From Rhodobacter capsulatus SB 1003 (lineage in GTDB: Bacteria > Pseudomonadota > Alphaproteobacteria > Rhodobacterales > Rhodobacteraceae), in the NCBI RefSeq assembly GCF_000021865.1, contig NC_014034.1, forward strand, positions 810,001 through 842,000: a stretch of DNA of 32,000 bases, written 5' to 3'. This document shows, piece by piece, positions 10,743 through 30,304 of this stretch. The notes beneath the pieces were generated by a model. It was given only the letters and a program-made list of their open reading frames with translations. It searched no databases and was not told where the DNA came from. How positions within the stretch are numbered: position 1 is the stretch's first letter; each line of letters starts with the position of its first letter. Both the position numbers and the translations under genes were made by a program.

Positions 10743-10756
10743 GAGACCCCCGTGAC

Positions 10757-10797
10757 AAGCAAAAGAAAGGCTTGTTCCGGTCGGGATCGACCGGAAC
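10757..10797 (-). terminator. Stem-loop plus T-run downstream of secG (minus strand), between secG and pyrG
   Basis: Minus strand reads GTTCCGGTCG-ATCC-CGACCGGAAC followed by AAGCCTTTCTTTTGCTTG. The 10-bp perfect stem was read directly. Confidence 0.55.
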
Positions 10798-10892
10798 CAC
10801 GGGATTTGACTGATACACGATTCGCAGCCTGCCCGCAACCAGACCGCAAGACTTGGAGTAAACTAAGAGCCGAAGTCCCAGTTATAGTGGGC

Positions 10893-11336: not shown

Positions 11337-11511
11337 GAGGGAGGCGCGCCTTTGTTCAATCGACGCGCCTATCTAGGCGCTTGGGCCACGGCGCGCAACC
11401 CGGTTTTCTGCCGCTGCCGGGCCGGGCGGCGTCCTTGCGGCGAAAAATCGGTTTCCCCCGGGCGTTCACCCCGCTATATGTCGCGCGGTTTCAGACCTGC
11501 GGAGAATGCGA

Positions 11512-12804
11512 ATGGCCAACGTGGTGGTTGTCGGCGCCCAATGGGGCGACGAAGGCAAGGGCAAGATCGTCGACTGGCTCAGTGAACGGGCCGACGTCAT
11601 CGCCCGCTTTCAGGGCGGCCACAATGCGGGCCACACGCTCGTCATCGGCGGCAAGGTCTACAAGCTGAACGCGCTGCCCTCGGGCGTCGTGCGCGGCGGC
11701 AAGCTTTCGGTGATCGGCAACGGCGTCGTGCTGGACCCCTGGCATCTGGTCAAGGAAGTGGCGGCGATCCGCGAACAGGGCGTCGAGATCAATCCCGACA
11801 ATCTGATGATCGCGGAAAACACCCCCCTGATCATGCCGTTCCACGGCGAGCTGGACCGTGCGCGCGAAGCCCATGCCGCGGTGGCGAAGATCGGCACCAC
11901 CGGCCGCGGCATCGGCCCCTGCTACGAAGACAAGGTCGGCCGTCGGGTCATCCGTGTCGCCGATCTGGCCGATGACGAGACGCTGCAGCTGCGCGTCGAT
12001 CGCGCGCTTGTCCATCACAACGCGCTGCGCGCCGGGCTGGGCCTTGGCCCGATCGATCGTGACGCCGTGCTGGCCGATCTGCGCGCCATCGCCCCCGAGA
12101 TCCTGCAATATGCGAAACCGGTCTGGAAGGTCCTGACCGAGCTGCGCAAGGCGGGCAAGCGGATCCTGTTCGAAGGCGCGCAGGGCTCTCTGCTCGACAT
12201 CGACTTCGGCACCTATCCCTTTGTCACCTCCTCGAACGTGATCGCGGGGCAGGCGGCGACGGGCGTCGGCCTCGGGCCGAATGCGGTCGATTATTCGCTT
12301 GGCATCGTCAAGGCCTATACCACCCGGGTGGGCGAGGGCCCGTTCCCGACCGAGCTGAAAGACGACGACGGCGAGCGTCTGGGCACGCGCGGCCATGAAT
12401 TCGGCACCGTCACCGGGCGCAAGCGCCGTTGCGGCTGGTTCGATGCGGTGCTGGTGCGCCAGACCTGCGCGATTTCCGGCATGAAGGGCATCGCGCTGAC
12501 CAAGCTTGACGTGCTGGACGGGTTCGAAAAGCTCAAGATCTGCGTCGCTTACGATGTCGATGGCGTGCGCTACGACTATCTGCCGACGCAGGCTGCGCTG
12601 CAGGCAAAGGCGAAGCCGATCTACGAAGAAATGGACGGCTGGTCGGAAAGCACGCAGGGCGCGCGGTCCTGGAACGATCTGCCCGGCGCGGCGGTGAAAT
12701 ATGTCCGCCGCATCGAGGAGCTGATCCAGTGCCCGGTGGCGATGCTCTCGACCTCGCCCGAGCGCGACGACACCATCCTGGTCACCGACCCCTTCGAGGA
12801 TTGA
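11512..12804 (+). CDS. purA: Adenylosuccinate synthetase
   Basis: ATG at 11512 lies 7 nt after GGAG. The product [23 protein letters not shown]...GGHNAGHT...[14 protein letters not shown]... matches canonical PurA motifs. Confidence 0.95.
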
Positions 12805-13100: not shown

Positions 13101-15488
13101 TCAGGCGCGGGCCTGATAGAACCGGCTCGCCTCGGTGATCGCGTATTGGCCGCGCTTCACCTTGGCGATCTTCCCCTGACGCAACAAGGTTCCGAACATC
13201 CGCAGCCGGTCTTCGCGGCTGAAGCTGGCGTCGCCCACGGCCGAGACCTTGCTCATGATCTGCGGCGGCGAGAAATGCGGCCGCCCCTCGACCTGCGCGG
13301 TATAGGCGGCGGCGGCTTCCAGCAGCTCGGCCAGACCCTGCGGCGCCCGGCTTTGCGCGAATTCGGCAAAGCTCGAGGCTTCCTCGGGGCTCAGCGGCAG
13401 CTCGATCTCGTCGTCGGTGGCCTCGGGGGCGGGCTCCTGCGTCAGGCTGGCGGCGATGATCCGGCGCGGACGGACCGCCTGCGCCTTGGCGACGGCCTCT
13501 GCGGGGGCGCGGTCGACGCGCTGTTCGGAGACCAGCACCAGCGGCGCCGGGCGTGCCTCGGGGCGGGCGGCGGTCTGATGGTGGCTTTCGCCGACCGCGG
13601 GCAGCACCGGACGGCGCGGCCGCACCGCCTGGGTCAGATCCTGCCGATAGGGCGCGGTTTCGTCCTTTTGCGCCTCTTCGGTGCCGGCCCGGCGTTCGGC
13701 CACGGTGGCGGCCACCGCGGCCTTGAGATGCGCGATCGCCGAAATCCGGCGCCGGTTCTCGTTGCCTGCCATCTGCGCATCGGCCTTTTCCAGCAGCCGC
13801 GGCAGGTCGCCTTCGGGCAGCGGCGGCACTTTCGCGGCCGGGCGCGCGGGCAGGATCAGCGGCTCGGCCGGATGGGTGCGGCGCTCGGCGACACCGGGCG
13901 GCGGCGCGTCGGGCGGCAGCGTGACCACGGTGAAGGCGGCAGGCGCGGGCGTGTCTTCGGCGAAAAGCGCGTCGATGTCGATCTCGGGTTTCTTCGCCGC
14001 GGGCGCTTCGGGCACGGCAGAAGCGGCGGCGGCCTCTTCCTCCGGCTCGGGGTCCAGCTCGACCACCAGCGCCTCGATTTCGACCTCGGGCTCCGGCGCG
14101 GCTTCGGCCGCAAGCTGGGGCTCGGGGGCGGGTTCGGGGACGGCTTCGGGGGCGACGGGGGCAGAGGCGACTTCGGCTTCGGCGCTTTCGGTGCTCCAGC
14201 CCTCGATGCCCCAATCGACATCGCCCAGATTTTCCGTCAGCGCGGCCAGTTCCGCCATCAGCTCGGCTTCCGCCTCGGGGCTCAGCGCCGCCGGTTCCGG
14301 CGCGGCCGGGCTTTCGGGGGCAGCGGCTTCGGCCATCGTTGCGCTGACCGAAGCCAGCATCCGGTCGATGTCCTCGGCGGCGGGGTCCGCGACGGATGCG
14401 GCTTCGGGCGTCGTTGCGGGCGCGGTTTCGGGGGCGGGCACCGGCGCGGCGGCGGCCAGCGGCTCGGCGCGGCGCAGCTTGATCACCCGGGCGCGGATCA
14501 CCGGACGGGGCGCCTCGGGCGCGACCGCGGCTTGCGCTGCCGCAACCTCGGGCGCGGTCGTCTCGGGCGCAGTCGTCTCGGGGGCGGCGGGCGTCGACAC
14601 GGCCTCGGCCGCCGGTTCGGCCGCATCCTCGGCGGTGCCCTGCGCCTCGGCCTGCACCTGACGGGCGGCGCGGCGTTCGGCACGGCGGCGCATGCGCTCG
14701 ATCTTTTCGGGATCCATGCTGCCCGGGGTCTCGTCTTCCTCCTCGTCCTCGCTGTCAAGGGCCGGATCGGGAAGGGCGGCTTGCGTCACCGCGGCGGGCG
14801 GCGCTTCGGCGCCCGGCTCCTCTGCCGCCAGATCCTCCGCACGCAGCGGACCCGAGATGTCCAGCGCGAAGCCGAAATCCTCGGGCGCGGCGATCGCCTC
14901 GGTCCCGGGGTCGGTCTCCGCTTCGGGCACGGCTGCGGCCACAGGTTCGGCCTCGGGGATTTGCGCGGTCTGGACGGGGGCGGTCTGGACGGGGGCGCTC
15001 GGGGCGAGGTCCGGATCCGCGTCGGGCTCTGCCGGTCCCTGCGCCGCGCGCGCCTGCGCCACCGCCGAGCGGATGCGCTGCAGCTTCGCCGCCACCGATT
15101 CGCTGATCGGATCGCCGCCGACCTCGGGGGGCGCCGCGATGGGGGCCGCCGCGACGGGGGCCGCGGGCGTCCCGGCAACGGGCGTCCCGGCGGGCATCGC
15201 CACCACGACAGGGGCCGGTTCCCGCGCCGCCGCCTCGCCCGGACGCAGGATCACGCCGTTCTTCTCGATCTTCGCATCGACCCGCCGCGCCATTTCGCGC
15301 TCGGCGATGCGATGCAGCATCTCGGCGTCGGGCTGCGGCGGCTCGGCGCCAAAATACCGATCTTCCGCGGCCAGATCGCGGAAATATTCCGCAATCGCCT
15401 TCATCGTCGTGAAGGGTTCGTCGAACCCCTCCAGCGTGCACGAGAAGGTGCCGTAGGAGACGGTTAAGATCTTGCTCGCTCCAACCAT
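13101..15488 (-). CDS. Hypothetical 795-aa acidic Ala/Pro/Glu-rich protein with structured N- and C-terminal domains
   Basis: Internal ATG at 15488 of track ORF 13101..15527, preceded by AGGAGAGG. The N-terminal roughly 90 aa (MVGASKILTVSYGTFSCTLEGFDEPFTTMKAIAEYFRDLAAEDRYFGAEPPQPDAEMLHRIAEREMARR) and C-terminal roughly 90 aa (…RPHFSPPQIMSKVSAVGDASFSREDRLRMFGTLLRQGKIAKVKRGQYAITEASRFYQARA) have normal composition. They flank about 600 aa of A/P/E/T low complexity. I recognise no family. Confidence 0.7.
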   Translation of the reverse strand: MVGASKILTVSYGTFSCTLEGFDEPFTTMKAIAEYFRDLAAEDRYFGAEPPQPDAEMLHRIAEREMARRVDAKIEKNGVILRPGEAAAREPAPVVVAMPAGTPVAGTPAAPVAAAPIAAPPEVGGDPISESVAAKLQRIRSAVAQARAAQGPAEPDADPDLAPSAPVQTAPVQTAQIPEAEPVAAAVPEAETDPGTEAIAAPEDFGFALDISGPLRAEDLAAEEPGAEAPPAAVTQAALPDPALDSEDEEEDETPGSMDPEKIERMRRRAERRAARQVQAEAQGTAEDAAEPAAEAVSTPAAPETTAPETTAPEVAAAQAAVAPEAPRPVIRARVIKLRRAEPLAAAAPVPAPETAPATTPEAASVADPAAEDIDRMLASVSATMAEAAAPESPAAPEPAALSPEAEAELMAELAALTENLGDVDWGIEGWSTESAEAEVASAPVAPEAVPEPAPEPQLAAEAAPEPEVEIEALVVELDPEPEEEAAAASAVPEAPAAKKPEIDIDALFAEDTPAPAAFTVVTLPPDAPPPGVAERRTHPAEPLILPARPAAKVPPLPEGDLPRLLEKADAQMAGNENRRRISAIAHLKAAVAATVAERRAGTEEAQKDETAPYRQDLTQAVRPRRPVLPAVGESHHQTAARPEARPAPLVLVSEQRVDRAPAEAVAKAQAVRPRRIIAASLTQEPAPEATDDEIELPLSPEEASSFAEFAQSRAPQGLAELLEAAAAYTAQVEGRPHFSPPQIMSKVSAVGDASFSREDRLRMFGTLLRQGKIAKVKRGQYAITEASRFYQARA

Positions 15489-15628
15489 GGGCGTTTCGCC
15501 TCTCCTGAACCTCATTGCGTTCACCATGCTTGGGAACTGGTGCTTTCCGGTGAACGAAATAGGGCAAATGCAGGGAATTTTAGCGATATCGGTTGCATGG
15601 CTTTGCCTTAATCATCATCAATCATGCC

Positions 15629-16300
15629 ATGAATGCGGAAATTGTCCATTGTGAAGGCGGGGTCACGCTGCTGGGCGGGGGAATCGCCGCTCCGGCCGAT
15701 GTTGCCAATTCGTTGACGATCGCGCCAGTGCTGGTGGCGGCCGATGGCGGCGCCGACCGGGCTTTGGCGCTGGGTCTGATGCCTGCGGCGGTGATCGGCG
15801 ACATGGACAGCCTCTCGGCGGCGGGCCGGGCGGCGCTGGCCGGGCGGCTGCATCCGGTGGCCGAACAGGACAGCACCGATTTCGGCAAATGCCTGCGGCT
15901 GGTCGCGGCGCGGTTCTATCTCTGCCTTGGCTTCACCGGGCTGCGGCTTGATCACACGCTGGCGGCGCTGACCGAACTGACCACGCGGCCCGGGCAGATC
16001 GTGATCCTGATCGCCGAGGACGAGGTGATCTTTCGCGCCCCCCCCCGGCTGGCGCTGGATCTGCCCTTGGGCACGCGGCTGTCGCTGCATCCGATGGGAC
16101 CGGCTTCCGGGCGCTCGACCGGGCTGCGCTGGCCGATCGACGGGCTCGCTTTCGCCCCCGAGAGCCGCACCGGCACCTCGAACGCGGTGACGGGCCCGGT
16201 GACGCTCGAGATCGACGGCCCGATGCTGGTGCTGCTGCCGAAGGATCAGCTCAGCCCCGTGCTGCACGCGCTTTTGCCGCCAGACGTTCGCGGTGAATGA
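15629..16300 (+). CDS. Thiamine pyrophosphokinase (thiamine diphosphokinase)
   Basis: Track ORF 15593..16300. The motifs VAADGGA, IGDMDS and EQDSTDFGKCL match the TPK catalytic domain. ATG 15629 is preferred over TTG 15593, but the start is uncertain. Confidence 0.7.
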   Translation: MNAEIVHCEGGVTLLGGGIAAPADVANSLTIAPVLVAADGGADRALALGLMPAAVIGDMDSLSAAGRAALAGRLHPVAEQDSTDFGKCLRLVAARFYLCLGFTGLRLDHTLAALTELTTRPGQIVILIAEDEVIFRAPPRLALDLPLGTRLSLHPMGPASGRSTGLRWPIDGLAFAPESRTGTSNAVTGPVTLEIDGPMLVLLPKDQLSPVLHALLPPDVRGE

Positions 16301-18878: not shown

Positions 18879-21221
18879 TCAGGCGCTGCGGCGCGACACG
18901 AAGAGCGCCGGACGGGGCTCCTCGGCCACCGGCGCGCGCGGCGCCCAGCTTTCCTCGCGCTGCAGCCGGAAGGTCGCCACGGCCTCGGCCAGCGCCGTCG
19001 CCTCGCCCTGCAGGGAGCGCACCGCGGCATTGGTCTCTTCGAAGACGGCGGCGTTCTGCTGCGTCGTGCGGTCCAGTTCCGTCGTCGCATTCGAGATCTC
19101 GGTGATCCCGGTCGCGGTTTCCTGCGAGGCGGTGACGATCTCGGCGATCTTTTGCGCCACATCCTCGACCCCGGCGACGATCTCGCGCAGCGCCTGACCG
19201 GAATCATGCACCAGCCCGACGCCCTGATTGACGTTGTTCGACGCGGTCTCGATCAGCCGGGCGATCTCGCGCGCGGCTTCCGAAGACCGCTGCGCCAGCG
19301 CCCGCACCTCCGAGGCGACGACGGCAAAGCCGCGCCCCGCATCGCCCGCCCGCGCCGCTTCCACCCCCGCATTCAGCGCCAGAAGGTTGGTCTGGAAGGC
19401 GATGTCGTCGATCACCTGCAGGATGCGCCCGATCGCCTCGGACGAGGCCTTGATCTCGTCCATCGCCGAGACGGCCCGCGACACCACCTGATGCCCGGCC
19501 CCGGCGCGGGTCGAGATCTCGGTCACCGCGCTGCGGGCGGTCTGCGCCGAATTCGCCGCCGAACGGACCGTGGCCGACATCTGTTCCAGCGCCGAGGCGG
19601 TCTGTTCCAGCATCGCCGCATTGCGTTCCGACCGCCGCGCCAGATCGTCGGCGGCCCCGGCGATTTCGCGCGCCGACGTGTCGACGGCGGTGGCGGACAC
19701 CGAAATGTCGCCCAGCGTGCCGGTTAGGCTTTCGGTGGTGCGGTTCATCGTCTCCGCGATCTCGGCAAAGACGCCGTGGAACCGCGTCGGCATGCGATGG
19801 GTCAGATCGCGTTCGGCCAGACGTTCCAGCGCGACGCGCACCGCGGTCAGCCCGTCATCCGCCGCCTCGCCGATCCGGTTCATCCCGGCGCAGAGATCGG
19901 CGAAGATGCCGGTCTTGTCGTCGGTGCGCAGCCGGCGCGAGAAATCGCCCTCGGCACAGGCGGCCACCACGGCGGCGATTTCCTGGGCGGCGGCATGTTC
20001 GCGCGCCTGGGCGGCGGCGGCGGCGGCGCGGTCTTCCTCGGCCAGACGGGCCCGTTCCGCCATCTCCGCGCGTTCCTGCGCGGCGGCGGCGATCCGGGCC
20101 TCGGCTTCCCGCTCGGCGGCGGCGGCGCTTTCCGCCTCGAGCCGCTGTCGTTCCAGGATCGTGGTCCGGAAACTCTCGAGCGCCGCCCCGATCGAGCGCA
20201 CCTCGGCCACCCGGGTCTCGGGCACGGTGATGTCCGTCCGCCCCTCGGCCAGTTCCTGCACCGCCGTCGTCACCGCGCGCAGCGGCGTCACCGTGGCCCG
20301 GAACAGCCGCACCGCCGAGGCGCCGAGCACCAGCATGCCGATCCCGCCCGCCAGGGCCATCAGGAGATAGCCGCGCATCTTCGCCGCATCGGTCGCCGCC
20401 GTCATCTGCTGGACATCGGCCGCAAGGCCGTCGCGTAGCGCGGCAAGCGCCAGCGGCATCGCGTCATAGCTGTCGTCACAGGCGCGGATGATCGAATCGA
20501 TCTGCAGCGCAAGGTCGGCATATTGGTGGAAGGCGTCCTGATATTCCGTCAGCTTCGCCAGCGTCCGGTCCCGGTGTTGCGTCGAGACGAACATCGTTTC
20601 GGGAAAGGACTTGAAGGTCTCGATTTCCTTGTCGAGCTTCTCGATATAGGCCGGATCGAGGCGCAGGATGAAGTCCTTTTCGGCCCGGCGCATCTTCAGC
20701 AGACTCACCTCGACCTTCGGCAGGGCAAGCGCGCCCACCATCTTTTCGGCGGCATGCACGGCCGCGCGCAGCTGCCCCTCGAGCCCGGAATCGGCATTGA
20801 GCCCCAGAACCACCCGGGTATCGGCAAAAAGCGCGAAGTTTTCCTCGTAACTGTAAAGCAGATCCTGCAACGCGCCCGCCCGACCTGCGCTTTCGGCAAG
20901 GCCGAGGTCGGTTTCATGGGCCACCAGCGTCTTGAGCTGCGCCGAGGCCTGGGCGATCTGCCCGGCATGATCCGCGATTCGGGATTCCTTGCGGTCGATG
21001 CGGAACTTCGCCTCGGTGTCGCGCGCCGAAGCCAAGGTTCGTTCCAGCGTGGCCAGATCCGTGCTCAGCCGCGAAATCTGCAGGCTTTGCTGTTCGGCCC
21101 TGCGGTCGACGAGTGCGGAATAAAAGACTGTGGCGAAAACGGCCGCCGTGCAAACGATGATGACGAGGCCCATGCGGACCAGATAGGACAGAAAGCTGCG
21201 GGATGTACCTGCGCGTGCCAT
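18879..21221 (-). CDS. Methyl-accepting chemotaxis protein with a large helical periplasmic sensor domain
   Basis: Internal ATG at 21221 of track ORF 18879..21536, with GGAG 7 nt upstream. TM1 is [21 protein letters not shown], followed by a helical ectodomain of about 260 aa, TM2, HAMP, and the conserved MCP signalling tip [43 protein letters not shown]. Confidence 0.9.
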
Positions 21222-21345
21222 GCGGTTGCTCCGAAAGATCGCTTCCGCAAAATCGGGCAAAGGAATTAAGGTCCGGTGAAGTCGCGCGCGGATTGGTAAA
21301 CTTGTTTGTTTTGCTGAAATCCGGATCCGGCCTTGTCGGCGGGAG

Positions 21346-21367
21346 CCCCCGGCCCTTCGGCCGGGGG
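21346..21367. other. GC hairpin between the two MCP genes (CCCCCGGCC-CTTC-GGCCGGGGG)
   Basis: A 9-bp perfect stem about 30 nt downstream of the upstream MCP stop at 21397. The T-run is on the plus-strand side only, so its role as a minus-strand terminator is uncertain. Confidence 0.35.
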
Positions 21368-21396
21368 AAGTTTTTCGCTGCGGCCGGGGGGCGCGG

Positions 21397-23334
21397 TCAG
21401 CCCGCCATCCGCTGGTCCCAGGACGCGCCGCCCGCACGACCGGCGATGCGGAACACGGCGCTGAACTCCTTGAGCATGCGGGCCTCGTGCAAAAGCCCCT
21501 GTGTGGCAGCGGAATTTTCCTCGAACATCGCGGCATTGTGCTGTGTCACCTGATCGAGCTGGTTCACCGCCGCCGTCACCTCGGAGATGCCGGAAGACTG
21601 CTCGGCCGCGGCACTGGCGATGCCGTCCAGAAGCCCGTCCAGCTCGGTCACCAGGGTCTCGATCTCGCCCAGCGCGGTGTCGGACCGCGCCGCCAGATCC
21701 ACCCCCGCGGCGACTTGCCGCGACGAGGTGTCGATCAGGGCGGCGATCTCGCGCGCGGCTTCCGAGGACCGCTGCGCCAGCGCCCGCACCTCGGAGGCGA
21801 CGACGGCAAAACCGCGTCCGGTCTCGCCCGCCCGGGCGGCTTCGACGCCCGCATTCAGCGCCAGAAGGTTGGTCTGGAAGGCGATGTCGTCGATCACATG
21901 GGTGATGCGCGAGATCTTGTCGGAACTTTGCGCGATGTCGTCCATCGCCCGTTGCGTCTGCCGCACCACCTCGCGGCCGGTGGCGGTGGTGGCCCGGGTG
22001 CGGTTCACCGCCTGCGCCGCAGAACGCGCCCCCTCGACCGATTGCGCGACCGAGGCCGCCATCTCGTTCATCGCCGCCGCCGTCTCCTCGAGCGAGGCCG
22101 CCTGCGTCTCGGTGCGCCGACCCAGCTCCATCGAGGCCGACCCGAGCTGGCCCGCCTCCGTCTCGACGACATCGGTCGTCTGCACGATCGAGGCGATCAG
22201 CCCCGCGACCTTGTCGATGGCGCCGTTGAAATCATGGCGCAACCCTTCGTAGGCGGGCGGGAAGGTTTCGGTGATCCGGGCGGTCAGATCGCCCGCCGAG
22301 AGCGCCTGCAGGCCCTGCGCCAGCGCCGAGACGACATTCAGCTGCTCGCGCATCTGCGCGTCCCGCTCGGCCTCGGTGCGCTGGCGTTCGGCCTCGCGTT
22401 CGGCCCGGCGGGCGGCTTCGGCGCGCTGGGCTTCCGCCTCGGCCTCCTGTTCGCGGCGCCGCAGCGCTTCTTCGCGGTCGCGGGCCTGGGCCTCGGCCCG
22501 GGCGATCTCGGCCTCCTGGTCGCGGCGTTGCCGTTCCAGCTCCGCCTTTTCCGCCAGCGAGGCCCGGAACACTTCGAGCGCCTTCGCCATCTCGCCCACT
22601 TCGCCACGCGCATCGGTGCAGGGGACCGGGCTTTCGGTGTCGCCGCCGGTCATCTGCCGCATCCGGTCATTCACCGCGCCGAAGGGCCCGGTGACCGTGC
22701 GCGCCAGCGCCGTCGCCGCCCCGCCCAGCGCCACCAGCGCCACCGCCATCGCGATCAGCGAGGCGTTGCGCAGATGCGCCAGCGCCGCGGTGATGTCGGT
22801 GACATAGGAGCCGGTGCCGACGATCCAGCCCCAGGGGGCGAAATCGCGCACGAAGCCGATCTTTTCCTCGGGCGTGTCGGTGTCGGGTTTCTTGAAATGG
22901 TATCGCACCTCGCCGCTGCCCGCGGTCTCGGCGATCTTGACCATCTCCACGAAGATCTTCTTGCCGTAGGGATCGGTGTAGCCCATCTGCGACTTGCCGA
23001 TCCAGTCGGGCATCGTCGGGTGGACCAGCATCACGCCCTTGTGGTCGAGCACGTAAAAATAGCCGGATTTGTCGAATCGCAGTGCGGTCAGGCGGCGGGC
23101 CGCCTCGGCCCGGGCCTGGTCGGCGGAAAGGCTGCCCGCTTGCACCTGTGCTTCCAGATCGATCAGCATGCCGATGGCGGTGTCGGTGACGTCGCTGAGG
23201 TGTTGTTCGCGCATCTCATAGGCGTTCGAGCCCGCAAAACGCACCAGCGTTTCGGACAAGATGATGAGCGAAACGGCGGCAAGGGCCACGATCGCATAGA
23301 TGCGGGCGGAAATACCGAAGAATTTGTTTTTCAT
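21397..23334 (-). CDS. Methyl-accepting chemotaxis protein with a single-Cache (sCache_2-like) periplasmic domain
   Basis: Internal ATG at 23334 of track ORF 21397..23478. The order is TM1, a Cache-like ectodomain ([19 protein letters not shown]...[12 protein letters not shown]), TM2, HAMP, and an MCP signalling domain ([43 protein letters not shown]). Confidence 0.9.
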
Positions 23335-24399
23335 GGGGCCTTGAGGTCTGGGAAGGTGAAAGCCTGGCCAGGAACGGTACGCGACAAGACAGGGAACGGG
23401 CCGAGTGGAACCCTCACTCTGGCAGCCATCTGTCAATTTTCTCTTACAGTTCTGGATTTGTTTTAGATTGATCCACACCCGTTGCGGCTGTGGGAGGCCC
23501 CCCGGAGTGCCCCCCAGAGTGCCGCCATGGCGTGCCCCCGGCCGTCCGCGGCGCGGGACTCGGGGCGCCGGATGCGGGCCGCGAGACGCGCCGAAATGCC
23601 GGGTGACAAGAAGGTTTCCAGTTTTTCGATCCGCTGGAATATTTTTGATCGCGACCTCGTTTTCCGGCCGTCATGGCGGCGACGCAAAACGCGGATAGGG
23701 TCGGATCGGGCCGCCATTTCAGGGCCGAAAATCGCCTTTTGCGCGTGTCCCTGCGTCGAATTTCGCACCCTCAGAAAGGGCCGATCCGGACCCAGCGACG
23801 GCGTATCTTCGACCGGGGCGGGTGTTTTCGACCCGCGGGAGCGCTTTTTTTCGGTGCGGATGGGGCCGCCTGTTGCCTGAATCGGCCTGTCGATGCCCGA
23901 ATTCGGCGCTCTTTTGCGGGAAATGCCCGGCGTTCCGGGCTTCCGTCCGCCGGATCGGGGCTTTGGGGCAAAATCAGGGTCAGCATTCCTTCCTTACCTG
24001 CGCGCGCGACCGGGGCGGGGCTGTCGCCGCCCCGGAAACCCTTTGGAAAGCACGTTGAAAAGCTTTCGGACGCAGCGGGCAATTCGTTTGACCCGCCCGG
24101 CGTGCTGGCGCAATTTTGATCCATCCCAAGGGAAGGGTGGAGGATGGAGAGGTTCGGGCCGCGAAGGGCCGCAGATCTTGGAAGATGACGACGGGGTCCG
24201 GGTCGGACACAGGGCCCCCGAACCATCGCGTCGACAGCGGGAGAGATCCCGCGCCGACCACAGGAACCGCGGCGATCGTGCCTGACCTCTCCATGACCCT
24301 CGACCGGACCCAGGCACCGCTGTTTCGTGCCCTGTGCTCTGCCGATTCTGTTTTTTCGACCCGCGGGGCTGTCCCCGCCTGCTGCCGCTGAGTGCCCCG

Positions 24400-25911
24400 A
24401 TGCTTGCCCTCGAGACTGCCCCCGCCCTGCGCCTGCCGCCGATCCCGGTCGAGACGGTGGCCCGTCCGGCCTGCCCGGGCCCCGCGCGCGGCGAGACTGC
24501 GGGACAGGGCAGGGTCACGATCTGCCTTGATGCGCGCGGACAGGTCCGGCAGGTGCAGCTGCACCTTCTGGACCTTTGCGGCGTCGAGACCTTGCTGGAA
24601 GGCCGCGCGATCGCCGAGATCCCCGAGGCGGTGCAACGGCTGTGCGGCCTGTGCCCGGTCAGCCATCATCTGGCCGCGGTCAAGGCGATGGACCGGATCG
24701 CGGGTTATGACCGGCTGACGCCGACGGCGGAAAAGCTGCGGCGGCTGATGCAATACGGCCAGATCGTGCAAAGCCATGCGGTGCAGCTTTATCATCTGGC
24801 CGAGCCGGACCTGCTTTTGGGCTTCGACAGCGAACCCGCAAGGCGCGGTCTGGTCGATGTCGCGCGCGCCTTTCCGCAGCTGGCGACCGAGGGGGTGCTG
24901 ATGCGCCGCTTCGGTCAGGAGGTGGTGCGGGCGATCACCGGCGGGCGGTTGCCCGGCGCGGGGGCGGTGCCCGGGGGCATGCGGCGCCCGCTGCCGCGCG
25001 CGGCCCGCGATCAGCTGCGCGCCGATGTCGATCAGGTGATCGACTGGGCGGCGGGGGCGCTGCGGGTGCTGGAACGGCTGCACGGCACCAACCCGGCCTT
25101 TTACGACCATCCGGCCGAGACCGGCGGCAACCTGCTGGCGCTGGTCGGCGCCTCTGGCGCGGTGGATTTCTACGATGGCCGGCTGCGGGCCCGCGATGCC
25201 CGGGGGGCGACGCTGTTCGACGCCGTCCCCGCCGCGGCCTATCGCGGCGTTCTGGCCGAGCCCTCCGGCCCGGGCGGGCCGCATCTGCGCGCGCTGGGCC
25301 CCGAGACGGGCTGGTATCGCGTCGGACCGCTGGCGCGTTTGCAGGTCTGCGACCTTCTGACCTCCGAGAAGGCCGAGACCGAACGGCAGCGGCTTCTCGC
25401 CCCCGGGGACGGGAAGCCGTTGCAGGGGTCGGTGTTCCATCACGGCGCCCGGCTGGTCGAGCTGCTGCATGCGGCCGAGCTGATCCGCGACCTTCTGGAC
25501 GATCCCGAGCTGCTGGGCACCGATCTGATGGCCGACCGCGGCGCCCCGCAGCGCGAGGCCGTCGGCGTGATCGAAGCGCCGCGCGGCACGCTTTTGCAGC
25601 GCTACGAGGTCGACGAGGCCGGGCGGATCCGCCGCTGCACGCTGCTTTTGTCCACCCGCAACAACAGCCGGGCGATGGATGCGGCGCTGCAGGGGGTGGC
25701 GGCGCAATATTGCGACGGCCGCCGCGTCACCGAGGATCTGCTCGCCCATATCGAGGTGGCGATCCGCGCCTTTGATCCCTGCCTGTCCTGTGCCGCCCAT
25801 GCGCTGGGGCAGATGCCGCTGTCGGTCGAGCTGATCGATGCCGGGGGGGCGGTCGTCTCGGGGCTGCGCCGGGGCGCGGACGGGGGGGTGTCATGCTGCG
25901 TTCGATCCTAG
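24400..25911 (+). CDS. [NiFe]-hydrogenase large-subunit paralog, HoxH-like (group 3-type), orphan with no adjacent small subunit
   Basis: Track ORF 24334..25911. The N-terminal Ni-ligand motif RLCGLCPVSHH is at 24637-24669. The C-terminal motif DPCLSCAAH is at 24774+1000 = 25774-25800 and is followed by a 36-aa tail ALGQMPLSVELIDAGG... Other large-subunit blocks are EKLRRLMQYGQIVQSHAVQLYHL, VPGGMRRPL, YRVGPLARL and EAPRGTLL. The start is uncertain: ATG 24400 has no clear RBS, and GTG 24334 is the alternative. Confidence 0.8.
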   Translation: MLALETAPALRLPPIPVETVARPACPGPARGETAGQGRVTICLDARGQVRQVQLHLLDLCGVETLLEGRAIAEIPEAVQRLCGLCPVSHHLAAVKAMDRIAGYDRLTPTAEKLRRLMQYGQIVQSHAVQLYHLAEPDLLLGFDSEPARRGLVDVARAFPQLATEGVLMRRFGQEVVRAITGGRLPGAGAVPGGMRRPLPRAARDQLRADVDQVIDWAAGALRVLERLHGTNPAFYDHPAETGGNLLALVGASGAVDFYDGRLRARDARGATLFDAVPAAAYRGVLAEPSGPGGPHLRALGPETGWYRVGPLARLQVCDLLTSEKAETERQRLLAPGDGKPLQGSVFHHGARLVELLHAAELIRDLLDDPELLGTDLMADRGAPQREAVGVIEAPRGTLLQRYEVDEAGRIRRCTLLLSTRNNSRAMDAALQGVAAQYCDGRRVTEDLLAHIEVAIRAFDPCLSCAAHALGQMPLSVELIDAGGAVVSGLRRGADGGVSCCVRS

Positions 25912-26438
25912 GGCCGCGTCTGGTCGTCTTTGCCTGGGGCAACGAAAGCCGCGGCGATGATGCGCTGGGGCCGCGGCTGGCCGCGCGCATCGCCCAGGCG
26001 GGCTGGAGCCACATCACCCTGATCGAGGATGTGCAGCTGCAGGTCGAACATGCGCTGGATCTGGTCGGTCAGGATCTGGCGCTGTTCATCGATGCGGGGA
26101 TGGGCACGCCCGCGCCCTTTGCCTTCGTGCAGGCGGTGCCGCGCCGGTTTCTCGGGCCCTCGACCAGCCTTGGCATCGGTCCCGAGGGGGTTCTGGAAGC
26201 CTATCGCCAGGTCATGCATGACGAGCCGCCGCCCGCCTTCGTGCTGTGCCTGCGCGGCGAAAGCTTCGCGCTGGAAGAGGGTCTCAGCGCCGCGGCCCGG
26301 GCGCATCTGGCGCAGGCCTGGGGCTTTCTGATCCCGCTCCTCTCCTGGCCCGGGATCGACCGCTGGCAGGCGGCGCTGACCGGCCCGGCCGAGGATCTGT
26401 TCCCCGCCAGCGACGATCGCCGCTCTGCCGCCGAGTGA
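25893..26438 (+). CDS. Hydrogenase maturation endopeptidase family protein (HoxW/HybD/HupD-like)
   Basis: Track ORF of 181 aa. The N-terminus LVVFAWGNESRGDDALGP carries the family GNxxxxDDxxG motif, and LALFIDAG matches the second metal-ligand strand. The ATG overlaps the end of the preceding large-subunit gene by 19 nt. Confidence 0.7.
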   Translation: MLRSILGPRLVVFAWGNESRGDDALGPRLAARIAQAGWSHITLIEDVQLQVEHALDLVGQDLALFIDAGMGTPAPFAFVQAVPRRFLGPSTSLGIGPEGVLEAYRQVMHDEPPPAFVLCLRGESFALEEGLSAAARAHLAQAWGFLIPLLSWPGIDRWQAALTGPAEDLFPASDDRRSAAE

Positions 26439-26511
26439 CCCCGCAGGGCCGGGCCCCTTGCGCCGGGCTTCGGGCCCGATATGCTGGGGCAGCCCCCACC
26501 GGAGCCGCGCC

Positions 26512-27882
26512 ATGCCCCGACTGCCAGTCAAGGACAGTCCGCCCCGTTTCGATCCGGCCCCTTTGGCCGGTCTGCTGCCCGGTCACGCGGCGGGCGATGC
26601 GGTCTGGGTCGATGTGCTCTCGGCCGTCGATCGCACCTATGCGGAACTTGTCGATTATCAGGAACGGCTGGAGCGGCAGAACCACGAACTCGAAGACCTG
26701 CGCTCTTATCTCGGTTCGATCTTCGCCTCGGTTTCGGATGCGCTGATCGTCGTCTCGCGCGCGGGGGAGGTGCTGGGCACTTCGGCCTCGGTCGAGGCGC
26801 TGACCGGGCAGGGGGCGGGGGTCTGGCAGGGGCGGCCCTTGGCGGCGCTGTTCGATCCGGCCTCGGGGCCGCGGCTTGATCGCGTGCTGGCCGAGGCGGC
26901 GAACCGCCGTGCCCCGGTCACGGTCGAGGCGGCCCTGCTGGGTCCGGGCGGTCCGGCGCCGCTGGAACTTTCGGTCAGCCCGCGGCTGGACGAGCGGGAT
27001 CGCCTCATCGGCTATGTGCTGACCGGCCGCCCGCTGGGGGAATTGCGTCAGGCCTATTCCGAGCTGGAACGCTCGCATGCGGCGCTGATCGCGGCACAGG
27101 CGCAGCTGGTGCGCAACGAAAAGCTGGCTTCGCTGGGCCGTCTGCTCGCGGGCGTCGCGCATGAGCTGAACAACCCGATTTCCTTCGTTTACGCCAATGC
27201 CCATGCGATGGAGCGCTACGCCGCGAAATTCGAGACCTATTTCGCCGCGGTGCAGGCGGGCGCGACGCGCGAGGAGCTGGTGGCCCTGCGCGAGAGCCTG
27301 AAACTGGAACGCGAGGTCGGCAATCTGCGCACCGCGATCGACGGCGCCCGCGACGGGGCCGAGCGGGTCCGCGCCATCGTCGAGGATCTGCGGCGGCTCT
27401 CCTCGGACGGCACCGGCGAGCAGGTGGTCTTCGATCTGGTCGCCACCGCCGGGGTGGCGGCCGATTGGGTGCGGCGCGGCTCGAAAACCGCGGTGGCGGT
27501 CGATTTCACCGGCCTTGCCGCGCTCGAGGTGATCGGGCGGCCCGGCCATATCCAGCAGGTGGTGATGAATCTGGTGCAGAACGCGCTCGATGCGATGGGC
27601 GATTTTCAGGACGGCCGCATCCGCATCGAGGCCCGGATCGCGGCCGGGCGGGGCGAGCTGGTCGTGTCCGACACCGGCCCGGGCGTGGCCGAAGACGTGG
27701 CGCCGACGATTTTCGACCCGTTCTTCACCACCAAGGATGTCGGCAAGGGCACCGGGCTGGGCCTCTCGATCAGCGCCAAGATCGTCGAGGAACATGGCGG
27801 GCGGCTGCGGCTTTTGCCCGAAAGCCCGCTGGGCGGCGCCTGTTTTTGCTTCGATCTGGCGCTGGCGGGGGACCCGGCATGA
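26512..27882 (+). CDS. hupT: Histidine kinase HupT (H2-sensing signal transduction, partner of HupUV)
   Basis: Internal ATG at 26512 of track ORF 26458..27882, with GGAG at 26501-26504, giving 456 aa. It has a PAS-like N-terminal region, an H-box (LASLGRLLAGVAHELNNPISF), an N-box (VVMNLVQNALDA) and G-boxes (DTGPGV, GTGLGLSIS). It is followed by hupU and hupV with overlapping stop and start codons. Confidence 0.9.
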   Translation: MPRLPVKDSPPRFDPAPLAGLLPGHAAGDAVWVDVLSAVDRTYAELVDYQERLERQNHELEDLRSYLGSIFASVSDALIVVSRAGEVLGTSASVEALTGQGAGVWQGRPLAALFDPASGPRLDRVLAEAANRRAPVTVEAALLGPGGPAPLELSVSPRLDERDRLIGYVLTGRPLGELRQAYSELERSHAALIAAQAQLVRNEKLASLGRLLAGVAHELNNPISFVYANAHAMERYAAKFETYFAAVQAGATREELVALRESLKLEREVGNLRTAIDGARDGAERVRAIVEDLRRLSSDGTGEQVVFDLVATAGVAADWVRRGSKTAVAVDFTGLAALEVIGRPGHIQQVVMNLVQNALDAMGDFQDGRIRIEARIAAGRGELVVSDTGPGVAEDVAPTIFDPFFTTKDVGKGTGLGLSISAKIVEEHGGRLRLLPESPLGGACFCFDLALAGDPA

Positions 27883-28877
27883 AGGTTCTGTGGTTGCAGG
27901 CCTCGGGCTGCGGCGGCTGCACGATGTCGGCGCTTTGCGCCGAGGCCCCCGATCTGATCGACACCCTGGCCACGGCGGGGGTGGAATTCCTGTGGCATCC
28001 GGCGCTCAGCCTCGCCACGGGCGGAGAGGTGCGGCAGCTTTTGCAGGCTCTGGAAGCGGGCGAGATCGCGCTCGACTGTCTGGCCGTCGAGGGGGCGATC
28101 GCCCGCGGGCCGATGGGCACGGGGCGGTTTCAGATGCTTTCGGGCACCGGGCGGTCGATGCTTGACTGGGTGCGGGCGCTGGCGCCGCTGGCCGGGCATG
28201 TCGTCGCGGTGGGCTCTTGCGCCGCTTATGGCGGCGTGACCTCGGCCGGGGGGAACCCGTCGGATGCGGTCGGGCTGGCCTTTGAGGGCGCGCATCCGGG
28301 GGGCGTGCTGGCGGCCGAGTTCCGCGCCCGCTCGGGCCTGCCGGTGGTGAATATCGCGGGCTGCCCGACCCATCCGGGCTGGGTGACCGAGACGCTGATG
28401 CTGCTGGCGCGCGGGCACCTGGCCGCGGCGGATCTGGATGCGCTGGGCAGACCGCTGTTTTATGCACAACATCTGGTGCATCATGGTTGCCCGCGCAACG
28501 AATTCTATGAATACAAGGCCTCGGCGCTGCAGCTGTCGGATCTGGGCTGCATGATGGAACATCTGGGCTGCGTCGGCACGCAAGCCGTGGGCGATTGCAA
28601 CATCCGCCCCTGGAACGGCGAGGGTTCCTGCACCCGGGGCGGCTATCCCTGCATCGCCTGCACCGCGCCGGAGTTCGAGGAACCCCGCCACCCCTTCACC
28701 GAAACGCCGAAGGTCGCGGGGATTCCGGTGGGCCTGCCCGCCGACATGCCGAAGGCCTGGTTCATGGCGCTGGCCTCGCTGTCCAAGGCCGCCACGCCCG
28801 AGCGGATCGCGAAGAACGCCGTGGCCCCGCGCCTGACCGTGCCGCCGACGATCCGCAAGCCCGGGGGGCGGCGATGA
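27879..28877 (+). CDS. hupU: Regulatory (H2-sensor) [NiFe]-hydrogenase small subunit
   Basis: ATG 27879 overlaps the hupT TGA (ATGA). The product starts MKVLWLQASGCGGCTMS with no twin-arginine signal peptide. It contains small-subunit Fe-S Cys motifs (GSCAAYGG, GCPTHP, HHGCPR, GCVGTQAVGDC, GYPCIAC). Confidence 0.9.
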   Translation: MKVLWLQASGCGGCTMSALCAEAPDLIDTLATAGVEFLWHPALSLATGGEVRQLLQALEAGEIALDCLAVEGAIARGPMGTGRFQMLSGTGRSMLDWVRALAPLAGHVVAVGSCAAYGGVTSAGGNPSDAVGLAFEGAHPGGVLAAEFRARSGLPVVNIAGCPTHPGWVTETLMLLARGHLAAADLDALGRPLFYAQHLVHHGCPRNEFYEYKASALQLSDLGCMMEHLGCVGTQAVGDCNIRPWNGEGSCTRGGYPCIACTAPEFEEPRHPFTETPKVAGIPVGLPADMPKAWFMALASLSKAATPERIAKNAVAPRLTVPPTIRKPGGRR

Positions 28878-30304
28878 GCGACACGCCGCGGCTGGTCGTC
28901 GGCCCGTTCAACCGGGTCGAGGGCGATCTGGAAGTGCATCTGGATCTGGCCGGGGGGCGGGTGGCCGCGGCCCGGGTCAACAGCCCGCTCTACCGCGGGT
29001 TCGAGCGCATGCTGGAGGGCCGCGCCCCCAGCGATGCGCTGACGCTGACGCCGCGGATCTGCGGCATCTGCTCGATCTCGCAATCGGCCGCCGCGGCGCG
29101 GGCGCTGGGCGCGGCGATGGGGCTTGCGCCAACCGATCAGGGCGCGTGGCTCGCCGCGCTCATTCATGCGGTCGAAAATGTCTCCGACCATCTGGTGCAT
29201 TTCAACCTCTTCTTCATGCCCGATTTCACCCGGCCCTGTTACGCCGCCCGGCCGTGGTATCCGCGCGCGGTGGCGCGCTTTGCCGCGATCGAGGGGCAGG
29301 CGGGCCGGGCGGCGATTGCGGCGCGTTCGGGGCTGATGCACATTCTGGGGCTGATGGCGGGGAAATGGCCGCATACCCTGGCGCTGCAACCGGGTGGCGT
29401 CACCCGCACGCCGGGGCCGCGCGACATCCTGCGCATTCAGACCGAGCTGCGGATGTTTCGCAAGCATCTGGAAACGCAGGTTTTCGGCGGGCGGCTTGAA
29501 GATTTCGTCGTGCTTGCCTCGGTCGCCGATCTGCTGCGCTGGGATCGTGGCGATGCCGGGCTGTTTGTGGAAATCGCCGCCGATCTGGACCTGGACCGGC
29601 TTGGCCGCGGCGCCGGGCGCTATCTGAGTTTCGGCGCCTATCCGCTGGCCGAGGGGCATGGTTTCGCGCCGGGGCTCTGGCAGGCGGGGGCGGTCACGGC
29701 GCCGGACATGGCGGCGATTGCCGAGGATCTCAGCCATGCCTGGATGCTGGGCGGCACGGCGCATCCCTTTGACGGCGTCACCCGCCCCGACGAGACGATG
29801 CGCGAGGGCGCCTACAGCTGGTGCAAGGCGCCGCGGCTGGGCGGGCAGCCGGTCGAGGTGGGGGCGCTGGCGCGGCAGCTGATCGACGGCCATCCGCTGG
29901 CGGTGGATCTGGCGGGGGGCGGCGTGCTGGCGCGGGTCGCCGGGCGGCTGCTGGAACTGGCGCGGACGCAGCTGCTGATGGAGACCTGGGCGGCGGCGCT
30001 CGACCCCGGGGCGGTCTTCATGGTGCAGGGCCGGATGCCCGAGACGGGCGCGGGCGCGGGGCTCGTCGAAGCCGCGCGGGGAAGCCTGGGCCATTGGCTG
30101 CGCATCGAGGGCGGCAAGATCGCCTCCTATCAGATCATCGCGCCGACGACCTGGAACTTTTCCCCCCGCGACAGCGCGGGCGTGCCGGGGCCGCTGGAGG
30201 CGGCGCTGGTCGGCGCCCCGGTTGCGCCCGGCGAGGACAGTCCGGTTGCGGTGCAGCATGTCGTGCGCAGTTTCGATCCCTGCATGGTCTGCACCGTGCA
30301 TTGA
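28874..30304 (+). CDS. hupV: Regulatory (H2-sensor) [NiFe]-hydrogenase large subunit
   Basis: ATG 28874 overlaps the hupU TGA (ATGA). Motifs present are NRVEGDLEV, RICGICSISQ and ARGSLGHW. The protein ends exactly at DPCMVCTVH-stop, with no C-terminal extension, as is typical of sensor hydrogenases. Confidence 0.9.
   Translation: MSDTPRLVVGPFNRVEGDLEVHLDLAGGRVAAARVNSPLYRGFERMLEGRAPSDALTLTPRICGICSISQSAAAARALGAAMGLAPTDQGAWLAALIHAVENVSDHLVHFNLFFMPDFTRPCYAARPWYPRAVARFAAIEGQAGRAAIAARSGLMHILGLMAGKWPHTLALQPGGVTRTPGPRDILRIQTELRMFRKHLETQVFGGRLEDFVVLASVADLLRWDRGDAGLFVEIAADLDLDRLGRGAGRYLSFGAYPLAEGHGFAPGLWQAGAVTAPDMAAIAEDLSHAWMLGGTAHPFDGVTRPDETMREGAYSWCKAPRLGGQPVEVGALARQLIDGHPLAVDLAGGGVLARVAGRLLELARTQLLMETWAAALDPGAVFMVQGRMPETGAGAGLVEAARGSLGHWLRIEGGKIASYQIIAPTTWNFSPRDSAGVPGPLEAALVGAPVAPGEDSPVAVQHVVRSFDPCMVCTVH

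Follow-up and report, generated by a model that had tools for sequence, protein, structure and literature searches.

The NAD+-reducing hydrogenase HoxFUYH of Hydrogenophilus thermoluteolus (5XF9/5XFA) contains a large subunit, HoxH, with two cysteine pairs, the arginine of a PRG motif and a C-terminal extension, and a hoxW gene lies behind hoxH. In Rhodobacter aestuarii DSM 19945 / Rhodobacter sp. JA431, the genes nikR, a CbiMNQO-type nickel transporter, hoxF, hoxU, hoxY, hoxH, hoxW and a hypC-like gene are followed by hupT, hupU, hupV, hypF and hupS. HupK/HoxV, a cysteine-depleted, large-subunit-like protein, reportedly acts as a scaffold in maturing membrane-bound [NiFe]-hydrogenases; it has given up catalysis and some nickel ligands for a non-catalytic job and often goes with a HypC-type chaperone. 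The isolated large subunits HoxC and HoxG of Cupriavidus necator, studied in vitro, can be stable and cofactor-loaded without a small subunit (PMC8159394, PMC9886862). Here, we analyze a 32,000-nt stretch of Rhodobacter capsulatus SB1003 (the window, by which we mean the whole stretch), in which homologues of HoxH and HoxW, hereafter HoxH' and HoxW', are encoded directly before the H2-sensor genes hupTUV. We conclude, at a probability of roughly 0.68, that this pair is a catalytically dead relic of a Hox operon that selection has retained for a non-catalytic role.

The locus is made up as follows.

Positions 24400-25911, forward strand: hoxH', 503 aa from an ATG start, an orphan homologue of group-3d [NiFe]-hydrogenase large subunits (ADE84526.1, RCC00761).
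Positions 25893-26438, forward strand: hoxW', 181 aa, a homologue of HoxW-type maturation endopeptidases (ADE84527.1).
Positions 26512-27882, 27882-28877 and 28877-30304, forward strand: hupT, hupU and hupV, for the H2-sensor kinase and sensor hydrogenase, given as context outside the relic.

A first-pass annotation of this DNA had described a HoxH-like open reading frame (ORF) of 503 aa with a HoxW-type gene overlapping its end shortly before hupT, and all of its coordinates for this arrangement checked out: hoxW' starts inside the 3' end of hoxH' (19 nt of overlap), and a 73-nt spacer leads from hoxW' to hupT, with hupU and hupV downstream. It had also known of no description of the pair, but the pair is described: the two ORFs match two SB 1003 proteins exactly, ADE84526.1 ('NAD-reducing hydrogenase HoxS, beta subunit') and ADE84527.1 ('hydrogenase maturation factor HowW'), and the older GenBank pair AAD38065.1 ('HoxH') and AAD38066.1 ('unknown') is identical in sequence. 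The genes have long been present in databases, annotated as hoxH and hoxW, and the locus tags run from RCC00761 for hoxH to RCC00763 for hupT and RCC00764 for hupU; in our searches of the literature, no account of the orphan state or of how it is conserved came to light. In several NCBI records the R. capsulatus HoxW orthologue is labelled 'homospermidine synthase', an evident mis-annotation.

The comparison with R. aestuarii shows what the SB1003 locus has lost. Both lie at the same position with the same downstream flanks, HoxH and HoxW of R. aestuarii are 66% and about 67% identical to the SB1003 proteins, and a promoter-like element is common to the two. By contrast, the hoxF, hoxU, hoxY and hypC-like genes and the canonical motifs of R. 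aestuarii are all gone or eroded in R. capsulatus. A scan of one genome per species gave nine Rhodobacter loci with hoxH, and metagenomic relatives added five more; among them, the R. aestuarii locus (L007) and L014, which is 98-99% identical to it, hold an intact operon, and the nearest relatives outside Rhodobacter, in Pinisolibacter and Rhodoblastus, are plain hoxFUYHW. SB1003 belongs to what we call the capsulatus clade, together with DSM1710, SP108, SP18, R. viridis, SP36 and L017.

No HoxY, HoxU or HoxF was detected in the window by tblastn at E <= 1, and a hidden Markov model (HMM) of 120 HoxY sequences, run against the six-frame translation of the window, returned only HupU, at E = 8.8. 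These searches bear out the statement of the first-pass annotation that neither a small subunit nor a diaphorase lies beside the pair. A partner encoded elsewhere, which it had considered, did not turn up either: there was no R. capsulatus HoxY among the 120 best HoxY relatives in an index of 5.8 billion proteins, a search in which a very divergent partner could be missed. Its claim that the 1.07 kb upstream of hoxH' carries no remnant has to be given up, since two traces of the lost operon are present there, a promoter-like element and the start of hoxF; tblastn, blastn at word size 7 and the HoxY HMM gave nothing further in the window.

Positions 24087-24119, forward strand: a hox promoter-like element, TTTGAC-N-GCGCAATTTTGA, the putative promoter before the ancestral hoxF.
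Positions 24139-24188, forward strand: a ribosome-binding site (GGAGGA) and a 14-codon upstream ORF, MERFGPRRAADLGR* (24144-24188), the remnant of the hoxF start.

The promoter-like element also precedes the intact hoxF of R. aestuarii and the hoxF stump of Rhodobacter sp. TJ_12, and it recurs in L015 and in four further loci of the capsulatus clade, some 313-320 nt ahead of hoxH; DSM1710, where a single mismatch caused a strict pattern to miss it, is alignable. Within the 1.07-kb intergenic region, it opens the block that is conserved best. The upstream ORF, which is conserved in the capsulatus clade, aligns with the hoxF ribosome-binding site and start codon of TJ_12 (MQRF...) and R. aestuarii. 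Of the lost genes this clade retains nothing but the hox promoter and the start codon of hoxF, some 255-310 nt ahead of hoxH. Further upstream the clade has two methyl-accepting chemotaxis protein genes (18879-23334, reverse strand), in the place held in other Rhodobacter (L006-L009 and L018) by nikR and the CbiMNQO-type nickel transporter cluster.

Other lineages preserve more of the operon. TJ_12 has the first ~56 nt of hoxF joined to hoxU's last ~130 nt, along with a fragment from the middle of hoxY, all 81-83% identical in nucleotides to R. aestuarii; in R. lacus and R. maris only hoxY residues ~72-122 are left; and hoxY is undetectable in the capsulatus clade, L015, L016 and L018. The intact hoxFUYHW that R. 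aestuarii carries at the orthologous position and these graded remnants uphold one proposal of the first-pass annotation, that the pair is left over from a lost Hox operon, and on such sequence comparison we regard this origin as settled. In a neighbor-joining tree of HoxH and HoxW, R. aestuarii and TJ_12 pair as sisters (95% bootstrap), and the split of the outgroups, R. aestuarii and TJ_12 from all other orphans has 100% support, indicating that TJ_12 lost hoxFUY independently of the others. There were thus at least two independent losses of hoxFUY, and each deletion spared exactly hoxH-hoxW. The remaining orphans, whose remnants and flanks differ, may go back to one loss event or to several.

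In our reading, hoxH'-hoxW' is what survives, at the 3' end, of an ancestral operon hoxF-hoxU-hoxY-hoxH-hoxW. This operon, situated between the nikR/nickel-transporter cluster and hypC-hupTUV, specified a soluble, NAD-linked [NiFe]-hydrogenase of group 3d. A deletion in the capsulatus lineage took hoxF past its first codons, hoxU and hoxY, and joined the surviving hox promoter and leader to hoxH.

Two further features vary among these loci. In R. aestuarii, TJ_12, R. lacus, R. maris and L016, the hoxW-hupT interval holds a HypC/HupF-family gene (TIGR00074) of 74-77 aa (about 12000-12270 in L006-L009; 8034-8258 in L016), which the capsulatus clade, L015 and L018 do not have. In the metagenome scaffold L015 (6001-8018), an orphan hoxH-hoxW pair has an EttA gene upstream and no hupTUV downstream, where an NtrC-family sigma-54 response regulator and a CheB/CheR-PAS fusion are found instead; we considered this regulator as a HupR and set the identification aside, NCBIfam having given generic NtrC-family matches only. 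In L018 (10647-11995) hupV is called in two pieces of 117 and 331 aa, possibly through a frameshift or an assembly error.

HoxH' is a clear member of the large-subunit fold. It matches Pfam NiFeSe_Hases (PF00374) at E = 6.5e-22, aligns over its full length with the HoxH chain of the Hydrogenophilus enzyme (5xf9_D; E = 2e-120, phmmer), and is 55-58% identical to many proteins named 'NAD-reducing hydrogenase large subunit'. An AlphaFold2 model (predicted local distance difference test score, pLDDT, 79; predicted template-modelling score, pTM, 0.83) finds 5xf9_D as its best match in the Protein Data Bank (PDB) by Foldseek, at a template-modelling score of 0.82, with ~46% identity to H. thermoluteolus HoxH in the structural alignment. 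Group-3 NCBIfam models match below cutoff only, and no equivalog cutoff was reached. The conserved motifs of such subunits are found at the following places.

Positions 24484-24510, forward strand: the degenerate L0 block, reading ARGETAGQG where TRVEGHG is canonical, inside a hypervariable segment (aa 9-35).
Positions 24637-24666, forward strand: the L2 motif RLCGLCPVSH with the first cysteine pair, intact.
Positions 24940-24978, forward strand: the L3 region, GGRLPGAGAVPGG, with the histidine of canonical GKRIHGTGAIPGG replaced by proline (Pro185).
Positions 25573-25599, forward strand: the L4 motif EAPRGTLLQ, with the arginine kept and the histidine replaced by Gln400 (CAG at 25597-25599).
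Positions 25774-25800, forward strand: the L5 motif DPCLSCAAH with the second cysteine pair, intact in SB1003.
Positions 25801-25908, forward strand: the C-terminal extension of 36 aa, conserved across all relatives.

Most of this had been seen in the first-pass annotation, which located the tail, the glutamine codon and DPCLSCAAH correctly and had both cysteine pairs, while extending RLCGLCPVSH to 24669 and giving 24481-24522 for the degenerate ARGETAGQG block. It had also judged the RxEGH and PRGxxxH motifs to be divergent, and proper alignments agree: in L0 the histidine has become glutamine and the glutamate is not alignable, so that the RxEGH feature is absent, and the L4 histidine is glutamine. 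All four Ni/Fe-ligand cysteines (RxCGxC and DPCxxC) are present. HoxH' thus shares with the H. thermoluteolus subunit both cysteine pairs, the PRG arginine, the C-terminal extension and the hoxW gene behind it, and differs from that system in having no HoxY, HoxU or HoxF, in its L3 proline and L4 glutamine, and in a hypervariable, predicted-disordered segment in place of RVEGH (pLDDT <50 for residues 1-35 of the model). A true start downstream of this hypervariable N-terminus was ruled out, as the ATG and first eight codons (MLALETAP) are conserved in the clade and resemble canonical HoxH.

The residues of these motifs have known places in the enzyme. In [NiFe]-hydrogenases the L0 glutamate serves as the proton gate, the PRG arginine is the base above the active site, and the L3 histidine lies against the proximal iron-sulfur (FeS) cluster of the small subunit. 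Loss of L0 and of the L3 and L4 histidines fits a protein that neither contacts a small subunit nor turns over H2, and, lacking both an FeS small subunit and a diaphorase, HoxH' has no outlet for electrons. Since it lacks the defining features of group 3d other than the fold and the cysteines, we do not count it among the functional members of the group, and on these motifs a hydrogenase function is very unlikely.

To place SB1003 among its relatives we counted deviations at 210 alignment columns in which 99 canonical HoxH proteins show >=97% conservation. HoxH of R. aestuarii, from an intact operon, deviates at 5 columns, as does P0016, an L014-type protein whose intact operon was predicted from this count and then found on look-up; TJ_12, a fresh deletion, deviates at 12, and the older orphans at 33-54, with SB1003 at 51. 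The L0 block is canonical (TRVEGHG) in R. aestuarii and TJ_12, reads RVEAHG in L016 and TEGHG in L018, and is degenerate in the rest, with the histidine changed to glutamine or arginine. The L3 histidine, itself >=97% conserved in the canonical set, has been lost from 12 of the 13 orphan lineages sampled, even from TJ_12, the youngest; L018, the sole orphan to keep it, has it beside an insertion. The L4 histidine is glutamine only in R. capsulatus sensu stricto.

Single knock-outs reach the active site itself. The PRG arginine is glycine in L017, and among the Ni-ligand cysteines the first (C1) is leucine in P0010, the third (C3) is serine in P0052, and the fourth (C4) is glycine in SP36 (L011 10001-11542) and in P0013 (codon GGG), from an assembly independent of SP36. 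The ORF is intact in each of these alleles.

These losses bear on the proposal that HoxH' still activates H2, whether through a small subunit borrowed from HupU or HupS (as the first-pass annotation had suggested), as a 'minimal hydrogenase', or as an extra H2 sensor for HupT. SB1003 does hold the four cysteines, the PRG arginine and the C-terminal tail in a predicted HoxH fold, and the gene adjoins hupTUV and is co-regulated with it. Isolated HoxC and HoxG also hold their cofactor in vitro (PMC8159394, PMC9886862). These are laboratory preparations of subunits whose genes adjoin a small-subunit gene and whose catalytic motifs are all kept, in contrast to SB1003, where the small-subunit-less state is natural and old and the motifs are eroded. 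The glutamate and histidine of the L0 proton gate are missing in SB1003 and the block is altered, to varying degrees, in all orphans but TJ_12, which together with the near-general loss of the L3 histidine affects the residues expected to face a small subunit and relay protons. Ni-ligand cysteines have been lost one at a time in SP36/P0013, P0010 and P0052 while the ORFs were kept, the L015 pair has no hupU beside it to borrow from, and HoxW' of SB1003 lacks the histidine discussed below. We hold H2 activation by HoxH' to be highly improbable.

The processing enzyme may be impaired as well. HoxW' is 56-60% identical to canonical HoxW of Pinisolibacter and Rhodoblastus and scores 45.6 bits against TIGR00072 (cutoff 47.45), with no Pfam match. 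The metal ligands of HybD are Glu16, Asp62 and His93 (PMC2670836). In HoxW' both acidic positions are present (GDD, FIDA), and the third ligand position is leucine rather than histidine.

Positions 26169-26171, forward strand: codon 93 of hoxW', CTT (Leu), where HybD has its metal-ligand histidine (His93).

Canonical HoxW and most orphans read TSH here, SB1003, DSM1710 and SP108 read TSL, and SP36 reads TSQ; an alignment with HycI (5zby) places 'STHGLP' at HoxW' position 93. This equivalence comes from the pairwise HycI alignment and family alignments, as a HoxW profile search against the PDB aligned the N-terminal half only. The pair had been credited in the first-pass annotation with its own endopeptidase; a HoxW-type gene is indeed there, without the metal-ligand histidine. 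The lost partners, the eroded L0, L3 and L4 motifs and Leu93 together suggest that the pair is not a working hydrogenase/protease couple.

We measured selection on the pair as the ratio of nonsynonymous to synonymous substitution rates (dN/dS), using pairwise Nei-Gojobori (NG86) estimates, which are crude, within orphan clades and with bootstrap limits: dN/dS is 0.16-0.44 for hoxH (95% upper limits <=0.56) and 0.06-0.31 for hoxW (95% upper limit <=0.46), next to 0.05-0.19 for hupT, hupU and hupV over these pairs. All 13 orphan lineages sampled have the two ORFs at full length, at synonymous divergence (dS) up to above 1. Purifying selection acts at the protein level, relaxed about 2-4 fold for hoxH' and strong for hoxW', which is the more constrained of the two even where His93 is lost (0.08-0.12 in R. 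capsulatus). The capsulatus clade shares one upstream junction, so that its divergence (dS up to 0.67) arose in the orphan state.

Constraint is uneven along hoxH'. Its first 32 residues have a dN/dS of 0.75, frameshifting indels and intergenic-like divergence, whereas 50-codon bins after residue 32 give 0.13-0.43, with the minimum near the first cysteine motif, and the C-terminal extension gives 0.28. Between SB1003 and DSM1710, the 1398 nt of hoxH past codon 35 carry 0 indels at 94.5% identity and hoxW carries 0 indels at 96.2%, compared with 79.9% identity and 35 indel events in 685 nt of intergenic DNA; indels were counted in this pair only, more divergent pairs having given alignment artefacts. 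The G+C content at third codon positions is 0.86 and 0.83 for the two genes, similar to hupTUV.

Among the signs of decay named in the first-pass annotation was a dN/dS near 1, and the values above lie well under it; apart from the first 32 residues, we saw neither this nor a broken frame. Disrupted alleles in sister strains were another. No truncation occurs in the 13 lineages, and one allele shows something close to a disruption: P0002 (R. capsulatus, 3.79-Mb contig) is ~100% identical to SB1003 HoxH except at residues 189-235, a 47-aa out-of-frame stretch produced by a compensated frameshift, which may be real or a sequencing error.

A plain pseudogene in slow neutral decay, intact so far because of the time elapsed and a high G+C content that makes stops rare, would account for the eroded motifs, the near-neutral N-terminus with its frameshifting indels, the single cysteine, arginine and histidine ligands missing from various alleles, the scrambled segment of P0002 and the loss of the adjoining hypC' gene in the capsulatus clade; long spurious ORFs are also frequent in the R. 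capsulatus genome. It fits poorly with upper dN/dS limits no higher than 0.56 and 0.46, with the contrast in the same strain pair between an indel-free 1.4 kb of hoxH and the indel-rich DNA beside it, and with frames that stay full length in all 13 lineages. Nor does it lead one to expect that two or more independent deletions would each stop exactly at hoxH-hoxW, or that the hox promoter block would be the best-conserved part of the intergenic region. We consider simple decay improbable.

Published RNA-seq data include differential-expression entries for both hoxH and hoxW; the first-pass annotation would have read a missing transcript as decay. Two sequences that could bear on expression lie in and around the pair.

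Positions 24361-24375, forward strand: the RegA ChIP-seq (chromatin immunoprecipitation sequencing) motif CCGCGGGGCTGTCCC, an exact match, unique in the window, 25 nt upstream of the hoxH ATG.
Positions 26458-26485, forward strand: TTGCGC-N16-TATGCT in the hoxW-hupT spacer, a likely hupT promoter.

RegA peak 7 has been assigned to hoxH and hoxW and marked as repression (PMC5359404 Table 2), with a ChIP enrichment upstream of hoxH of 3.3-3.5, and RNA-seq of a regA mutant gave 2.96-fold for hoxH in PY medium and 2.05-fold for hoxW in RCV medium (PMC5359404). In fnrL and redB mutants, respectively, the log2 fold changes are -1.16 and +0.40 for hoxH, -0.42 and +0.57 for hupT, and -0.55 and +0.42 for hupU (PMC9603517 supplement), so the effects of FnrL and RedB on hoxH parallel those on its neighbors. 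A consensus promoter and terminator scan of 23300-26700 gave no sigma-70 matches and three terminator-like sites, a chance-level number, none of them between hoxH and hupT.

This arrangement raises the question of whether the protein matters at all, since translation of hoxH' could serve only the expression of hoxW' or hupTUV while HoxH' itself is idle. The hoxW start within the 3' end of hoxH, the terminator-free stretch down to hupT, the shift of hoxH, hupT and hupU in the same direction in both mutants and the tighter constraint on hoxW' would all follow. An idle protein predicts an amino-acid dN/dS near 1, however, and values well below 1 in every bin after residue 32 disfavor translational coupling alone as the constraint on hoxH'. 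The spacer holds a conserved promoter-like element of hupT's own, kept in 7 of 7 capsulatus-clade spacers, and hupTUV is reportedly expressed from a hupT promoter. The L015 pair, with no hupTUV downstream, still shows a hoxH dN/dS of 0.30 against its sister L018, and the coupling explanation gives no account of what HoxW' would serve. We regard it as unlikely.

We therefore return to a retained relic with a non-catalytic role, against which several of our observations also weigh. The independent single knock-outs in the active site are what early, slow pseudogenisation would produce too, and the compensated frameshift of P0002 resembles such a stage. Selection on hoxH' is relaxed in R. capsulatus (0.3-0.44 against 0.06-0.19 for its neighbors), the estimates themselves are the crude pairwise ones described above, and selection is the sole line of evidence from which a non-catalytic role is drawn. 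HoxH' of SB1003 itself keeps the four cysteines, the PRG arginine and the tail, and may still bind cofactor. The assignment of HoxW' residue 93 as a ligand draws on alignment and literature, and the phylogeny includes one intact lineage, R. aestuarii, besides the Pinisolibacter and Rhodoblastus outgroups.

We nevertheless read protein-level selection on a fold whose active-site residues are singly dispensable in several lineages as a sign of a pseudoenzyme-type role, and a residual non-catalytic role is likely. The pair would persist as a folded 'pseudoenzyme' module for which an intact NiFe site is not needed, most plausibly within the neighboring Hup/Hyp maturation or H2-sensing machinery. 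More tentatively, the pair may have been recruited across the genus Rhodobacter as a neofunctionalised pseudoenzyme pair after the small subunit and diaphorase were lost; it could serve as a scaffold or buffer for cofactor or nickel, or regulate the Hup/Hyp/H2-sensing system, and neither an intact NiFe site nor proteolysis would be required any longer. The first-pass annotation had listed a neofunctionalised protein among its possibilities, which the low dN/dS and the absence of truncation in 13 lineages favor over pure decay, with the role itself at the level of a candidate.

HupK/HoxV, as described above, would be the nearest functional precedent for such a retired large subunit, and the ancestral orphan loci carry a hypC-like gene after hoxW. 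It differs in deriving from the group-1 large-subunit lineage, and the capsulatus clade has lost its adjacent hypC-like gene; a scaffold role for HoxH' is pure hypothesis. If a new role is true, HoxH' would be a second large subunit recycled non-catalytically after HupK/HoxV, in a genetically tractable model host and adjoining the best-studied H2 sensor. The published treatment of the locus as an NAD-reducing hydrogenase is very probably wrong, and an automated hydrogenase classifier based on large-subunit counts would over-call group 3d at this locus. The genus also offers a natural, dated decay series of one operon, running from the intact state by way of a recent deletion whose motifs are canonical to old orphans in which they are eroded, which points to L0, the L3 histidine and the N-terminal strand as residues that are dispensable without a small subunit.

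Elsewhere in the window lie phaZ (3171-4445, reverse strand), phaC (4531-6324, forward strand), pyrG (9099-10838, reverse strand), purA (11506-12804, forward strand) and a thiamin pyrophosphokinase gene (15593-16300, forward strand). An 808-aa ORF rich in alanine, proline and glutamate (13101-15527, reverse strand) encodes an acidic protein with ordered-looking termini and no Pfam match, and its region is the most G+C-rich part of the window (0.71-0.75).

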